Shown here in pieces: positions 35,331 to 41,848 of a DNA stretch of 64,000 nt; position 1 is the stretch's first letter; the number at the start of each line of letters is the position of its first letter. A program made the position numbers and the translations under genes. This stretch comes from Rhodospirillales bacterium (GTDB lineage: Bacteria; Pseudomonadota; Alphaproteobacteria; Rhodospirillales; SHVU01), in assembly GCA_009691105.1 (NCBI GenBank), contig SHVU01000001.1, positions 22,882 through 86,881 on the forward strand. The letters run 5' to 3'. The notes beneath the pieces are model-generated. The model made no database searches. It was not told where the DNA came from and was given only the letters and a program-made list of their open reading frames with translations.

Positions 35331-37301
<1,971 letters not shown>

Positions 37302-37387: not shown

Positions 37388-38530
37388 ATGGCCAAGGAAG
37401 ATTTCTATACGCTGCTCGGCGTCCAAAAAGGCGCCGGGCTCGAAGACGTTAAGAAGGCGTATCGCAAGCTCGCCATGAAGTATCACCCGGATCGAAATCC
37501 GGGCGACAAATTGGCCGAGCGTAAATTCAAAGACATCAACGAAGCCTACGACGTCCTCAAGGACGACACAAAGCGCGCCGCCTATGACCGCTTCGGCCAC
37601 GCCGCGTTCGAGCAGGGCGGGCCGGGCGGTGCGCAACATGCCGGCGGGTTCGAGGCCGGCTTCGCGTCGGGCTTTGCCAATATCTTCGACGAGATGTTCG
37701 ACGATTTCTCGCAGCGCCAGCGCGGTGGTGGCGGGACAGGTCGCGGCGCCGATCTTCGCTACAACATGGACATCACGCTCGAGGAAGCCTACGGCGGCAA
37801 AAAGGCCTCGGTGCGGGTTCCGACGACGGTGGCGTGCACGACCTGTCGCGGCTCGGGCGCGGCGCAAGGCTCGACGCCGAGCGCGTGCACGACCTGTCGC
37901 GGCGCCGGTCGCGTCCGCTCGCAATCGGGATTCTTCACGGTAGAGCGAACCTGTCCGGCCTGCGGCGGCGCCGGCCAAGTCATCCGCAACCCCTGCAAGA
38001 GTTGCAACGGCGCCGGACGCGTCCAAAAAGAAAAGACGCTATCGGTCAGCATTCCGCCGGGGGTCGAGGACGGAACCCGGATTCGCTTGGCGGGCGAAGG
38101 CGCGGCCGGCTTGCGCGCCGCGCCGCCGGGGGATTTGTATATTTTCCTCGGCATCCAGCCGCACCGGTTATTCCGGCGCGACGGTCCCAACATTCATTGC
38201 CGCGTTCCGATCCCGATGACGGTCGCCGCCGTCGGCGGCGCCATCGATGTTCCAGCAGTCGACGGGACCCGGGCCCGGATCACGATCCCGGCCGGAACCC
38301 AAAGCGGGCACCAGTTCCGCCTGCGCGGCAAAGGCATGCAGGTCTTGCGCTCGACGGCGCGGGGCGACATGTTCATCGAGGCGATGGTCGAGACGCCGGT
38401 CAATCTCACCAAGCGCCAGAAGGAACTCTTGCGGGAGTTCGAAAACGAAAGCCCGCGCGAGCGTCAAAGTCCGGAATCTCACGGCTTCTTCACGAAGGTC
38501 CGCGAGATCTGGGAAGACTTGAAAGAGTAA
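37388..38530 (+). CDS. dnaJ: molecular chaperone DnaJ
   Basis: J domain with HPDRNP, a G/F region, and four CxxCxGxG zinc motifs ([32 protein letters not shown]). Confidence 0.97.
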
Positions 38531-38570
38531 ACGCACGCCGCGGGCGGGCGTCACGGGGGGAGACGACGCA

Positions 38571-39374
38571 TTGAGGATCGGGGTCTTCGGCGCCGCCGGA
38601 GCGACGGGCAAAGAAGTGGTCCGCCGCATCCTTTCGACTCCCGGCCTCGTGCTCTCCGGGGGCACGGGTCGTCCGAAAAGTGCCGACATCGGCAAGGATA
38701 TTGCCGCCGCCGCCGGTTTGAAGCCGATCGGCTTGCCGATCTTGGCCGATCCGGCCGCCGTCTTCGCCATCTCCGACGTGGTCATCGACTTCGCGCTGTC
38801 ATCGGCGACCATTCAGCATTTGAAGCTTGCCGCCAAAGCCAAGGTCCCGATCGTTCTCGGGGTCACCGGGTTCAAGGCGGCGCATCGCACGGCGATCGCG
38901 CAAGCCGCCAAAAAGACCGCCGTCGTCGAAGCCCCGAACACGGCCTACGCCGTCAATCTCGCCATGGTCTACATCGAGCGTGTTGCCCGTGTTCTCGCCG
39001 GCGATTTCGACATCGAGATCGTCACCGTCGGCGATCGCAAGCTGCCGTTCGCGCCATCGGGCACCGCGTTGCAGCTGGTCGATGCGGCGGCGCGCGGCCT
39101 CGGCGTCAAACGCGACAATGCTCTCGTCAAAGTCCGTGACGGCGACATCGGGGTTCGCAAGCCGACGGCGATCGGGCTCCATAACATTCGCGGCGGTATT
39201 CGCCCCGGCAATTCCCAGCGCGGCATTTTCTTCGGCGATTCCGAAGTCATCGAGATCGCCGGCATCACCTCGTCGCCCGGGGTCTATGCCGACGGCGCGG
39301 TCATTGCGGCGCAGTGGGTTAAAGGCAAGCGCCCCGGCCATTACGGCATGCGGGAGGTCTTCGACCTTGGTTGA
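38571..39374 (+). CDS. DapB-like paralog lacking the catalytic HHxHK motif (putative pseudoenzyme or neofunctionalised reductase)
   Basis: 267 aa, homologous to the downstream DapB along its full length. Keeps GAAGATG and APSGTA. Has VTVGDRKLPFAPSGTA (39021-39068) where DapB has VEMHHRHKVDSPSGTA. TTG start. Confidence 0.75.
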   Translation: MRIGVFGAAGATGKEVVRRILSTPGLVLSGGTGRPKSADIGKDIAAAAGLKPIGLPILADPAAVFAISDVVIDFALSSATIQHLKLAAKAKVPIVLGVTGFKAAHRTAIAQAAKKTAVVEAPNTAYAVNLAMVYIERVARVLAGDFDIEIVTVGDRKLPFAPSGTALQLVDAAARGLGVKRDNALVKVRDGDIGVRKPTAIGLHNIRGGIRPGNSQRGIFFGDSEVIEIAGITSSPGVYADGAVIAAQWVKGKRPGHYGMREVFDLG

Positions 39375-39384
39375 GAAGCGCCCC

Positions 39385-40176
39385 TTGAAAGTCGGCGTCG
39401 TCGGCTGCGCCGGCCGTATGGGCCGGATGCTGGTCGCCGAGATCGTCGCGACGCCGGGCTTGGCGCTCGGCGGCGGAACCGAGATCGCCGGAAATCCTGT
39501 CCTTGGCAGCGACGTCGCGCAGCAAGCCGGATTGCCGGCGGCGGGCCTCGTCGTCGGCAGCGATCCGCGGGCGCTGTTCAAGGCCTGTGACGCCGTCGTC
39601 GATTTCACGTTGCCGGCCGCCACCGCCATCCACGCCGATCTTGCCGCCGAGGCCAAAAAAATTCTGATCGCCGGGACGACGGGTCTGACCCCGGCCCAGC
39701 AAGAAATCGTCACCATGGCGGCGACGCGGACCGCCATCGTCCAGAGCGCCAACATGAGCGTCGGCGTCAACATTCTGCTCGGGCTTGCCGAAGATGCGGC
39801 GCGGCGCCTGACTGAGACCTACGACATCGAGATCGTCGAAATGCATCATCGCCACAAAGTCGATTCGCCGTCGGGAACGGCCTTGGCTTTGGGCCGGGCT
39901 GCTGCCAAAGGCCGTGGCGTCGATCTCGACAGCGTCAAGAAAATAGATCGCGATGGGGCGCGGCGCACCGGCGACATCGGGTTCGCGGTGTTGCGCGGCG
40001 GCGATGTCGCCGGCGATCACTCGTTGATCTTCGCCGCCGACGGCGTTCGCTTCGAACTCACCCACCGCGCCGGATCGCGGCGCATCTTCGCCAAGGGTGC
40101 GGCCCGGGCGTTGCTCTGGTCGCGGGGCCGGAAGCCTGGCCTCTATTCGATGCGCGACGTCTTGGGCCTCGGCTAG
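39385..40176 (+). CDS. dapB: 4-hydroxy-tetrahydrodipicolinate reductase
   Basis: KVGVVGCAGRMGR, EIVEMHHRHKVDSPSGTA (39835-39882), GDHSLIF, THRAGSRRIFAKGA. Start at TTG 39385, with an alternative TTG at 39367 overlapping the upstream stop. Confidence 0.9.
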   Translation: MKVGVVGCAGRMGRMLVAEIVATPGLALGGGTEIAGNPVLGSDVAQQAGLPAAGLVVGSDPRALFKACDAVVDFTLPAATAIHADLAAEAKKILIAGTTGLTPAQQEIVTMAATRTAIVQSANMSVGVNILLGLAEDAARRLTETYDIEIVEMHHRHKVDSPSGTALALGRAAAKGRGVDLDSVKKIDRDGARRTGDIGFAVLRGGDVAGDHSLIFAADGVRFELTHRAGSRRIFAKGAARALLWSRGRKPGLYSMRDVLGLG

Positions 40177-40186
40177 GCCCCGCCGT

Positions 40187-40654
40187 TCACGGCTGAACGG
40201 CGGCGAGAGCCTGACGAAGGTCGCCGGCAATGCGCAACCGTTCCTCGGCCGTCAAAAAACTGGCGATGCGGACCGACCGTCCGTGACTTCGCAGGACGAG
40301 CGGCGGATCGTCGTCGACGGATCCGGCCATCACGACCTTCAACCAATACGGCTGAAACGAATGATTGAGCCGCCGTCCCCAGGGATCGATCCTGCGAATT
40401 TGCAGCTCGCGGGCCGTAAGCGGGATCGTTTCGCTCCGCCGTCCGCCGCGCAAGTTGAGGCGCAGCGCTACGGCCAGGAGAATCACGTCGAGGCCGAGAA
40501 AACCGGAGACCGGCCAAGCTCCGATCGCCATGAACACCGCGCCGACGCCGCTGACCGCGAGCGCCAGGGTCGCGACCACGACATTGAGCCCGAGCAGGGT
40601 CGCGCTCCGATGAGGCCGAAGCACCGTGCGATAGAGGACCGGATCGTTCGCCAT
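40187..40654 (-). CDS. DUF2244-type integral membrane protein
   Basis: 155 aa. Two TM helices followed by ...LTARELQIRRIDPWGR...FQPYWLKV... (family name from recollection). Confidence 0.65.
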   Translation of the reverse strand: MANDPVLYRTVLRPHRSATLLGLNVVVATLALAVSGVGAVFMAIGAWPVSGFLGLDVILLAVALRLNLRGGRRSETIPLTARELQIRRIDPWGRRLNHSFQPYWLKVVMAGSVDDDPPLVLRSHGRSVRIASFLTAEERLRIAGDLRQALAAVQP

Positions 40655-40737: not shown

Positions 40738-41484
40738 ATGAAGCCTGACGCGATCGAGACCTTCTATTCCCGGTTCCAGCAACGCGACCGCGTTCCGAAA
40801 GGCGAGCTCGTCTACGTCGATCCCTATACGTTGCTGGTGGCGGTGGTGCTGTCGGCTCAGGCCACCGACACCTCGGTCAACAAGGCGACCGCGGAGCTGT
40901 TCAAGGTCGCGACAACGCCCCAGGCCATGATCGCCTTGGGCGAGGAAAAGCTTCGCGGATACATCAAGACCATCGGGCTCTTCAACACCAAGGCGAAGAA
41001 CGTCATCGCACTAAGCCAGCTGTTGCTCAGCGAGCACGGCGGCCAAGTCCCGACGAACCGCGAGGCTTTGGAGCGCTTACCGGGGGTCGGGCGCAAGACC
41101 GCCAACGTCGTCATGAACATCGCTTTCGGCGCACCGACCATCGCCGTCGATACTCATGTCTTTCGGGTGTCGAACCGCACCGGGCTCGCGCCTGGCAAAA
41201 CGGTTCTTGATGTCGAGGAAAAGCTCGAGCGCGTGACGCCCGCTGCCTACAAGACCCACGCCCATCATTGGTTGATTTTGCACGGCCGCTACGTCTGCAC
41301 GGCGCGGGGTCCGAAATGCCCGACGTGCTTGGTGCGTGATCTTTGCGCGTGGCCGGAAAAAACCTCCGCCGAAGGCGGAGGCGTCAGTCCGAAGTCTTCG
41401 GCTTCGCCGTCGCGACCAGGGTCCGCCAACAACCGTCGACGTCAACCCGGGCGACGCTCCGGCCCCGCATCTCGACGTGGGTGA
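40738..41484 (+). CDS. nth: endonuclease III
   Basis: HhH-GPD motif LERLPGVGRKTANVV, catalytic region, and the Fe-S cluster loop CTARGPKCPTCLVRDLC. Carries a ~40-aa low-complexity C-terminal tail that overlaps the convergent gene. Confidence 0.9.
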   Translation: MKPDAIETFYSRFQQRDRVPKGELVYVDPYTLLVAVVLSAQATDTSVNKATAELFKVATTPQAMIALGEEKLRGYIKTIGLFNTKAKNVIALSQLLLSEHGGQVPTNREALERLPGVGRKTANVVMNIAFGAPTIAVDTHVFRVSNRTGLAPGKTVLDVEEKLERVTPAAYKTHAHHWLILHGRYVCTARGPKCPTCLVRDLCAWPEKTSAEGGGVSPKSSASPSRPGSANNRRRQPGRRSGPASRRG

Positions 41485-41848
41485 CGCGCGCACCGTTCGC
41501 GTCCTTGTGAAGAAATATATCGAGGACGCAGGTTTCGCCCCGGTACTGCCAAAGCTCGGACGGACCGTCGCGGCGCAAAAATCCTGGCTCGCCCAATAGC
41601 GCGGTGACTTCGAGCGGCGGCAATCCGACCAAGCGGTCGGGCCGGCCGAGGTTGGCCGGCATGGAAACGGCGCTGACCGGCGACAACAACGTCGGCGCCG
41701 GCGGCACGGCGGCCGACGGTCCGGGTGTCGCGCTGAGCGGCGTGATGACTTTGGATACGACCGGGGCCCTCGGCGCCGAGGGCGCGCCGCAGGCAGCGAC
41801 GGTCATCACTAAGAGGGCGGCGAAGACGCCGCCGGTGGTGCGGCTCAC
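41384..41848 (-). CDS. hypothetical lipoprotein
   Basis: 154 aa. Signal peptide plus lipobox LLVMTVAAC. The GTG start overlaps the bactofilin stop (GTGA). No recognisable domain. Confidence 0.5.
   Translation of the reverse strand: MSRTTGGVFAALLVMTVAACGAPSAPRAPVVSKVITPLSATPGPSAAVPPAPTLLSPVSAVSMPANLGRPDRLVGLPPLEVTALLGEPGFLRRDGPSELWQYRGETCVLDIFLHKDANGARVTHVEMRGRSVARVDVDGCWRTLVATAKPKTSD

Follow-up and report, generated by a model that had tools for sequence, protein, structure and literature searches.

A DapB paralogue without the catalytic residues, encoded ahead of the canonical gene in an uncultured Rhodospirillales lineage

DapB (4-hydroxy-tetrahydrodipicolinate (HTPA) or dihydrodipicolinate reductase, EC 1.17.1.8; Escherichia coli structure 1ARZ) is an essential and well-studied antibacterial target. 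The bacterial enzymes characterised so far are homotetramers of identical active subunits, with interfaces formed by strand beta8 together with the extended loop and by strand beta10 (PMC3390394). Their substrate site is the motif E(L/A)HHxxKxDAPSGTA (PMC11489326). As far as that source relays Scapin et al. 1997, H159 is the proposed general acid, H160 binds a carboxylate and K163 polarises the imine, and E. coli DapB mutants of H159 and K163 are stated to have lost most of their activity (PMC11489326). For the Paenisporosarcina enzyme PaDHDPR, the K158A mutant (equivalent to K163) is inactive, dipicolinate is contacted by H155 (H160), R236 (R240, via water) and T165 (T170), and when the domains close T100 (T104) forms a bond with D160 (D165) (PMC5962572). 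A literature search found no description of a bacterial DapB paralogue without the catalytic residues.

Here we describe such a paralogue, px, in a stretch of 64,000 nucleotides (nt) from contig SHVU01000001.1 of a metagenome-assembled "Rhodospirillales bacterium"; this whole stretch is called the window below. The gene lies between dnaJ and a canonical dapB gene, pc, and both proteins are named 4-hydroxy-tetrahydrodipicolinate reductase at NCBI. Like bacterial DapB, px has the two-domain architecture, the length and the fold of the family; unlike it, px lacks E157, H159, H160, K163, D165, H220, H235, R240, R16 and M17. From its sequence we consider it very likely that px is dead for the ancestral DapB reaction yet functional. 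The features concerned are:

38571-39374, plus strand: px, divergent DapB paralogue, 267 amino acids (aa), TTG start, TGA stop (NCBI MSO53573.1)
39367-40176, plus strand: pc, canonical dapB, 269 aa (NCBI MSO53574.1)
38589-38609, plus strand: glycine-rich loop of px, G-A-A-G-A-T-G, residues 7-13, three glycines kept
39021-39068, plus strand: remodelled substrate-site segment of px, V-T-V-G-D-R-K-L-P-F-A-P-S-G-T-A (sequence, alignment)
39207-39281, plus strand: second remodelled region of px, G213-G237 (alignment)
39835-39882, plus strand: canonical motif of pc, V-E-M-H-H-R-H-K-V-D-S-P-S-G-T-A (sequence, alignment)

Substrate site and annotation of px

A preliminary description of this locus, made from the sequence and its translations, had read the two genes as a tandem dapB pair, and the proteins do align end to end (41% identity, E 2e-55). 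All the strings and coordinates that it gave for both homologs are present: GCAGRMG, the motif at 39835-39882, GDHSLIF and THRAGSR in the canonical downstream copy and, in px, the replaced E-x-HH-x-H-K segment (39021-39068), GNSQ for GDH and ITSSPG for THRAxSR, all within an intact open reading frame (ORF) running from the TTG at 38571 to the TGA at 39372-39374. It was right that the HHxxK segment is gone, but it understated the extent of the loss. We aligned px with 122 canonical DapBs, E. coli included, whose residue numbering is used here for family positions. In this alignment px differs at 21 of the 73 columns that are conserved at >=95%, compared with a median of 1 and a maximum of 4 for canonical DapBs; with the threshold lowered to >=90%, it departs from the family at 30 of 95 columns. 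This departure is far beyond chance.

The segment at 39021-39068 carries the changes E157T, H159G, H160D, H162K, K163L and D165F with APSGTA kept, which means that the Glu, both His, the Lys and the Asp of the substrate-binding and catalytic motif are all replaced. In the second remodelled region G-N-S-Q-R-G stands in place of G-D-H (H220Q plus a one-residue insertion) and A-G-I-T-S-S-P-G in place of T-H-R-A-x-S-R (H235G, A237T, R240P), and px thus matches neither the C-terminal G-(D/E)-H nor the T-H-x-A-x-x-R motif, through H220Q, H235G and R240P. The positions E157, H159, H160, K163, D165, H220, H235 and R240 are 98-100% conserved in the 122 canonical DapBs, and their replacements (E157T, H159G, H160D, K163L, D165F, H220Q, H235G, R240P) are the same in all three px sequences. 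Two further changes, T103V and M129T, lie in the nucleotide domain, where GxTG and APN are kept; the kept APSGTA includes T170. Judged by the dipicolinate contacts of PaDHDPR, px therefore retains a single side chain among those that hold the substrate analogue, the others being lost. The canonical copy pc has the full set of catalytic and nucleotide-binding residues.

Family profiles recognise both proteins. px scores 101 bits with Pfam DapB_N (cut-off 25.6) and 74.7 bits with DapB_C (cut-off 27), and pc is likewise above both cut-offs. With the equivalog TIGR00036 (cut-off 122 bits) px scores 167 and pc 236, px passing despite its missing catalytic residues. TIGR00036 thereby names a protein that, to judge from its residues, almost certainly cannot carry out HTPA reduction, and pathway reconstructions that count dapB copies can be led astray because this model names px as the reductase. 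Since the defining catalytic motif is replaced, px is not to be filed as an HTPA reductase, and its present name is probably an over-annotation. The TIGR00036 score, 167 against 122 bits, would suit the view that px is an ordinary DapB isozyme, as NCBI annotates it, or a redundant duplicate that is turning into a pseudogene, a view that we hold to be very improbable. The joint loss of H159, H160, K163, R240, D165 and E157 exceeds any tolerated single change, and Ala mutants of the K163 equivalent are inactive (PMC5962572).

Selection, fold and nucleotide binding

To estimate selection we used a contig from a different sample (L001; ENA ERZ27280310) that has the same dnaK-dnaJ-px-pc order. Identity between the window and L001 is 89% for px, 82.5% for pc and 93.6% for dnaK. 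The ratio of nonsynonymous to synonymous substitution rates (dN/dS, Nei-Gojobori) is 0.145 for px (95% bootstrap 0.083-0.226) and 0.189 for pc, compared with 0.067 for dnaJ and 0.076 for dnaK. The dS values range from 0.44 to 0.63 across genes, with 0.44 for px over 267 codons, and dN is 0.063 for px versus 0.118 for pc, px thus being at present the slower of the two to change in protein sequence. All assemblies with a px gene (the window, L001, L002 and L003) have its ORF intact. px is under purifying selection and is not decaying. The preliminary description had proposed the dN/dS of the pair as a check, and neither neutral evolution nor decay is what this comparison reveals. These data speak against a pseudogene in the making or a redundant isozyme on three counts: the upper bootstrap bound of 0.226, the absence of stops and frameshifts from px in all assemblies, and a dS of 0.44, which represents ample time for decay since the lineages split.

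Relative-rate tests with E. coli as outgroup gave 47-54 px-unique changes versus 17-26 canonical ones (p 1e-5 to 1e-2), and pc evolves at the normal rate of the family. Because these tests combine with a low present dN/dS, the history of px reads as a burst of change and, after it, constraint. In its C-terminal domain px has a dN/dS of 0.094; an unusual C-terminal constraint peculiar to px was considered and rejected, as the pc domains show the same pattern.

The fold of px was modelled with AlphaFold2 as a single chain from a 52-sequence alignment. The model has a predicted local distance difference test score (pLDDT) of 92.6 and a predicted template modelling score (pTM) of 0.88, and its lowest block-of-ten pLDDT values (~80) fall at residues 151-160 and 201-220, in or beside the remodelled segments. 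Foldseek aligned it to E. coli DapB 1ARZ with a template modelling (TM) score of 0.95 and a root-mean-square deviation of 1.5-1.6 A, and the best 50 PDB matches are DapB in every case. According to the model, px retains the two-domain DapB fold, which was another check that the preliminary description had proposed. Strands are modelled at 201-209, 215-221 and 226-232, and the extended loop is full-length and keeps R189, G191, G194 and R196.

The glycine loop had been described as kept. This holds for its three glycines, but the family-invariant R16 and M17 are lost, replaced by Ala-Thr in the window and by Thr-Val in the orthologue P0001. Elsewhere in the nucleotide site the R39 equivalent, G102, T104, A126 and N128 are kept, while T103 and M129 are replaced as noted above. 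In PaDHDPR the residue equivalent to R16 (K12) contacts the NADPH phosphate, and in the ternary complex the residues at positions 16 and 162 touch each other and this phosphate (PMC5962572). In an alignment of ~500 DapB homologues, counted by lineage, Lys or Arg at position 162 occurs in 8 of the 12 lineages without a basic residue at position 16, versus 33 of the 479 with one (odds ratio 27, p 5e-7, uncorrected for phylogeny). px pairs Ala or Thr at position 16 (its residue 11, 38601-38603) with a Lys at position 162 (its residue K157, 39039-39041), and a reasonable reading of its sequence is that the lost charge of R16 has been relocated to K157. Since the glycines, the R39 equivalent, T104 and N128 are kept and the Lys at 162 may offset the loss of R16, px probably still binds NAD(P)H. 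The covariation of R16 with position 162 is also a small structural point on how DapB holds the dinucleotide phosphate.

A nucleotide site of this kind would equally serve a neofunctionalised NAD(P)H-dependent reductase that acts on a non-dicarboxylate substrate, for instance a neutral or cationic cyclic imine. We regard it as the main rival of the subunit reading preferred below, and as somewhat less likely than that reading. The pocket has lost four positive side chains (H159, H160, K163 and R240) and gained an Asp; this Asp155, at the old His160 position, would be a new polar or proton-donating group. Two His-to-Gly changes enlarge the pocket, the three px sequences agree in all the new residues, the nucleotide-site residues are mostly kept with the R16 loss apparently offset by K157, the C-terminal substrate-binding domain is the most constrained part of px, and rapid change that then gives way to constraint is a classic mark of a new function. 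On the other hand, D165, whose equivalent bonds to T104 on closure, and R16, the phosphate contact, are both lost. Should px prove to be a new reductase, it would illustrate how a DapB pocket can be refitted. The proposal of the preliminary description, a pseudoenzyme that keeps the fold or else a reductase for a new substrate, thus gains support from the fold model, the lost side chains and the purifying selection.

Distribution, origin and a second tandem pair

A collection of 5.8 billion protein clusters contains one px-like 90% cluster with three distinct sequences, and the next match is a canonical DapB at 48% identity. When a profile of the three px sequences was run against 1.84 billion representatives, px scored 578 bits and the next protein 196 bits. 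A genome scan of 185,579 species representatives returned, among the matches listed, only canonical DapBs at <=45% identity, and among the same matches none of the 37 loci contained another tandem dapB pair. Overall, px is 33-48% identical to DapBs, and the nearest relatives of pc outside the lineage are <=66% identical to it. px has so far been seen in one narrow uncultured lineage. This very narrow distribution would fit a decaying duplicate; it also tells against a new reductase, as a useful enzyme might be expected to spread whereas px is an orphan.

The relative with a DapB (P0402) that is 65% identical to pc has the gene order of the window but a single dapB, 57 nt after dnaJ, and in two further loci (L005 and L009) dnaJ is likewise followed by a single dapB. 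Because these nearest same-order relatives hold a single dapB, px is an addition in this lineage. Neighbour-joining trees from two taxon samplings placed px on a long branch within the alphaproteobacterial DapBs, and px was sister to pc in 0/100 and 0/200 bootstraps. In the second tree px clusters with a tandem dapB pair from another lineage, the L048 pair described below, and an initial count of rare residues found 8-9 shared by px with that pair versus 2 with pc. Against a background of ~500 sequences, 1-2 of the 57 rare px residues are common to px and any sequence of the L048 pair or pc. As the shared rare residues vanish against this background, an affinity of px to the L048 lineage is rejected, and with it horizontal acquisition from there; long branches and too narrow a background had produced the signal. 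Comparison of the px and pc DNA revealed no similarity beyond 16 nt. The origin of px is best described, without proof, as an old tandem duplication, which is favoured by position alone.

The second tandem dapB pair (L048 5195-6822, also in L049-L053) occupies the slot between dnaJ and the DUF2244 gene in an alphaproteobacterial lineage whose dnaK is 79% identical to that of the window. It resembles the px-pc pair in its syntenic slot, its overlapping genes, the presence of one fast-evolving orphan copy and purifying selection (dN/dS ~0.15 for each copy). It differs in that the divergent copy (P0393/P0173) lies downstream of the canonical one, with a 4-nt ATGA overlap, and has another set of kept and lost residues. 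Its motif reads N-Q-Q-H-R-K-K-A-D-A-P-S-G-G; H160, K163, D165, H220, H235 and R240 are retained, E157, H159 and N128 are absent, and Ile replaces M17, Leu F79 and Gly T170. P0393/P0173 and px share no special derived residues, and since the two divergent copies are only 38% identical the two tandem-pair events look independent. A metagenome scan with P0173 returned only two canonical loci.

Within a sub-lineage of the second pair the upstream, otherwise canonical copy reads E-L-F-H-R-K-K (L051 1074-1883, L052 498-1307, L053 1-573). Phe thus takes the His159 position in three independent assemblies, and the proposed general-acid histidine is absent from both DapB copies of the L051-L053 genomes. 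As neither copy there has H159, the in vivo need for this residue comes into question. For px, the point bears on the isozyme view of the NCBI annotation: a DapB with Phe for His159 appears to be the main copy in that lineage, so single motif positions can be dispensable.

A strict HHxxK is missing from seven full-length proteins and one internally deleted protein of the nearest 149 representatives, P0173/P0393 being one of these proteins. Incomplete motifs (AH, VH, LH, HP, TH, HD) occur in P0131, P0152, P0216, P0199, P0208 and P0268, and P0216 also lacks the Lys and the PSGT segment. No second DapB gene was found on the recovered stretches around P0131 (L043 6001-6867), P0152 (L044 484-1314) and P0216 (L041 659-1474). 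P0131 is flanked by a staphylococcal-nuclease-like gene on one side and a TauE gene on the other, and a cluster for a molybdopterin dehydrogenase is found further downstream; after P0152 come genes of the MFS transporter and Old Yellow Enzyme-like kinds.

Gene order, proposed role and known systems

The operon consists of plus-strand dnaK-dnaJ-px-dapB, with the DUF2244 gene convergent to it. Its remaining features are:

35331-37301, plus strand: dnaK, first gene of the operon context (ORF; HSP70 Pfam matches in homologous loci)
37388-38530, plus strand: dnaJ, directly 5' of px (ORF; DnaJ Pfam matches in homologous loci)
38558-38563, plus strand: Shine-Dalgarno-like GGGAGA, 7-8 nt 5' of the px start (sequence reading)
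39352-39357, plus strand: Shine-Dalgarno GGGAGG for canonical dapB, within the px coding sequence, identical in L001
39367-39374, plus strand: 8-nt overlap TTGGTTGA of the dapB start TTG and the px stop TGA (39372-39374), conserved in L001
40180-40203, no strand: perfect inverted repeat of 10 bp, CCGCCGTTCA-cggc-TGAACGGCGG, in the gap where dapB and the DUF2244 gene converge
40187-40654, minus strand: DUF2244 membrane protein gene, conserved 3' neighbour (synteny)

The Shine-Dalgarno-like motif of px, GGGGGAGACGACGC, is conserved in contig L001. For pc the preliminary description had left the choice between starts at 39367 and 39385, and NCBI annotates the protein from the TTG at 39385 (263 aa). 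In L001 the codon equivalent to 39385 is CTC, whereas the TTG equivalent to 39367 is conserved with a strong Shine-Dalgarno sequence, GGGAGG, nine bases upstream. For this reason we place the start at 39367, overlapping the px stop by 8 nt, and the deposited start probably errs by 18 nt in the downstream direction. Given the same strand, the 8-nt overlap and the Shine-Dalgarno sequence inside px, conserved in L001, px and pc are expected to be co-expressed. No promoter-like or terminator-like site was found between px and pc, although the promoter and terminator scans performed at chance level. The inverted repeat at 40180-40203 is a possible bidirectional terminator without a T run, which the terminator scan did not call. 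The whole 64-kb window (1-64000) contains neither a tRNA gene nor any Rfam family that reaches gathering score. The third-codon-position GC content of px (0.80) resembles that of the neighbouring genes.

Beyond the DUF2244 gene follow nth and the genes for a bactofilin, an EI24/CysZ-like protein and a PfkB kinase. The nth ORF (40738-41484) ends in a low-complexity C-terminal tail rich in Arg, Pro and Ser and overlaps a convergent 154-aa ORF without Pfam match (41384-41848) by 101 nt (window 41384-41484); one of the two ends may be mis-called. Among the loci compared, the spacers between dnaJ and dapB are ~40-80 nt. In two marine Rhodospirillaceae/Rhodobacterales metagenome-assembled genomes (L006 2850-5960 and L010 2700-6000), ~3 kb of other genes separate dnaJ from dapB, the insert of L006 comprising three ORFs. 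Because both carry other genes there, the dnaJ-dapB junction seems to be a recurrent site of gene insertion.

We prefer to read px as a non-catalytic, probably nucleotide-binding subunit that assembles with active DapB, and we give this reading a probability of roughly 0.4. px would have arisen as an extra dapB copy, in the position of a tandem duplicate; it has lost nearly all side chains that bind or protonate the dicarboxylate, and selection keeps it as a working protein. px and pc would be made from one message, with the stop/start overlap expected to couple their translation. px would then join active DapB subunits through the retained C-terminal tetramerisation domain and, as a non-catalytic and possibly nucleotide-sensing subunit, could alter the stability or activity of the DapB tetramer. 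Mixed px/pc oligomers, which the preliminary description had suggested, would be consistent with the modelled tetramerisation strands and loop and with the 8-nt overlap. The assembly with DapB is favoured because the interface elements are intact and the stop/start overlap is conserved, because the second pair also overlaps, and because genes of a new pathway are absent nearby. The last point also counts against a new reductase: the neighbourhood is the ancestral dnaK-dnaJ-dapB-DUF2244-nth block with nothing added, which suggests no substrate or pathway, and tight translational coupling to dapB would be superfluous for an unrelated enzyme.

Several observations weigh against px being a partner of DapB. 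Its adjacency to pc is expected of any tandem duplicate, though the overlap is a separate feature, and the kept nucleotide-binding features suit a new enzyme equally. Residues 11-12 of the px loop vary between orthologues (A-T versus T-V), which may reflect relaxed constraint on nucleotide binding. The estimate of selection on px rests on one informative genome pair. In favour of a partnership one can cite that pc (window 39385-40173) has rare changes at its residues 161, 190-192, 221 and 243, namely A166S, the deletion of 3 residues from the extended interface loop, E229V where beta10 begins, and A251L; all but A166S are common to L001. These 3-4 changes lie at the upper edge of the canonical range (maximum 4), and they are given little weight because they stay within that range and the second lineage's canonical partner does not show them. 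A co-adaptation of pc to px was rejected on the latter ground.

A stronger form of the subunit proposal would make px an indispensable non-catalytic component of DapB hetero-tetramers, a bacterial 'prozyme' of the diaminopimelate/lysine pathway that keeps NAD(P)H binding and tunes flux or stability. We regard this form as unlikely. If it were true, DapB tuned by px would be expressed from the heat-shock dnaKJ operon, the second tandem pair would represent the same solution at an earlier stage, and DapB would offer a natural series for the transition from subunit to regulator.

px might also be a non-catalytic DapB-fold protein unrelated to DapB function, such as an NAD(P)H-binding sensor or an assembly factor, that adjoins dapB merely through having arisen there. 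Purifying selection and a kept fold without catalytic residues would agree with such a role. A precedent is plant CRR1, a DapB-like protein that, as Shimizu and Shikanai reportedly described in 2007, has an assembly role for the NAD(P)H dehydrogenase complex of chloroplasts; like px, it is a DapB-fold protein thought to act outside lysine synthesis. A chloroplast NAD(P)H dehydrogenase component highly homologous to dihydrodipicolinate reductase is also mentioned, without a name, in PMC3390394. px does not match the plant-type DapB model TIGR02130 (23.7 bits, cut-off 294.55) and, because it falls among the alphaproteobacterial DapBs in the tree, represents an event independent of CRR1. Since dapB is the only gene co-inherited with px, and its stop/start overlap with px is conserved, we judge a role unrelated to DapB to be quite improbable.

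The closest parallels for a subunit role are metabolic enzymes with a dead paralogue as partner. Pseudomonas PyrC', according to what Schurr et al. are said to have found in 1995, is an inactive dihydroorotase-like subunit of aspartate transcarbamoylase whose gene overlaps pyrB. Other cases are the trypanosomatid AdoMetDC prozyme and the deoxyhypusine synthase heterotetramer (PMC5201418, PMC3663545). All three are fixed across whole clades, whereas px occurs in one small uncultured lineage, a narrow distribution that limits its general importance. For px, binding to DapB and an effect on it are predictions. Like these partners, px is related to a metabolic enzyme but has other residues in place of the catalytic ones, is maintained by selection, is encoded with the active enzyme and derives from a parent enzyme that is an obligate oligomer; and, as with pyrB and pyrC', the genes of px and pc overlap. 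If px does partner the active DapB, it would provide a compact case, in bacteria, of a dead paralogue acting as a regulator.

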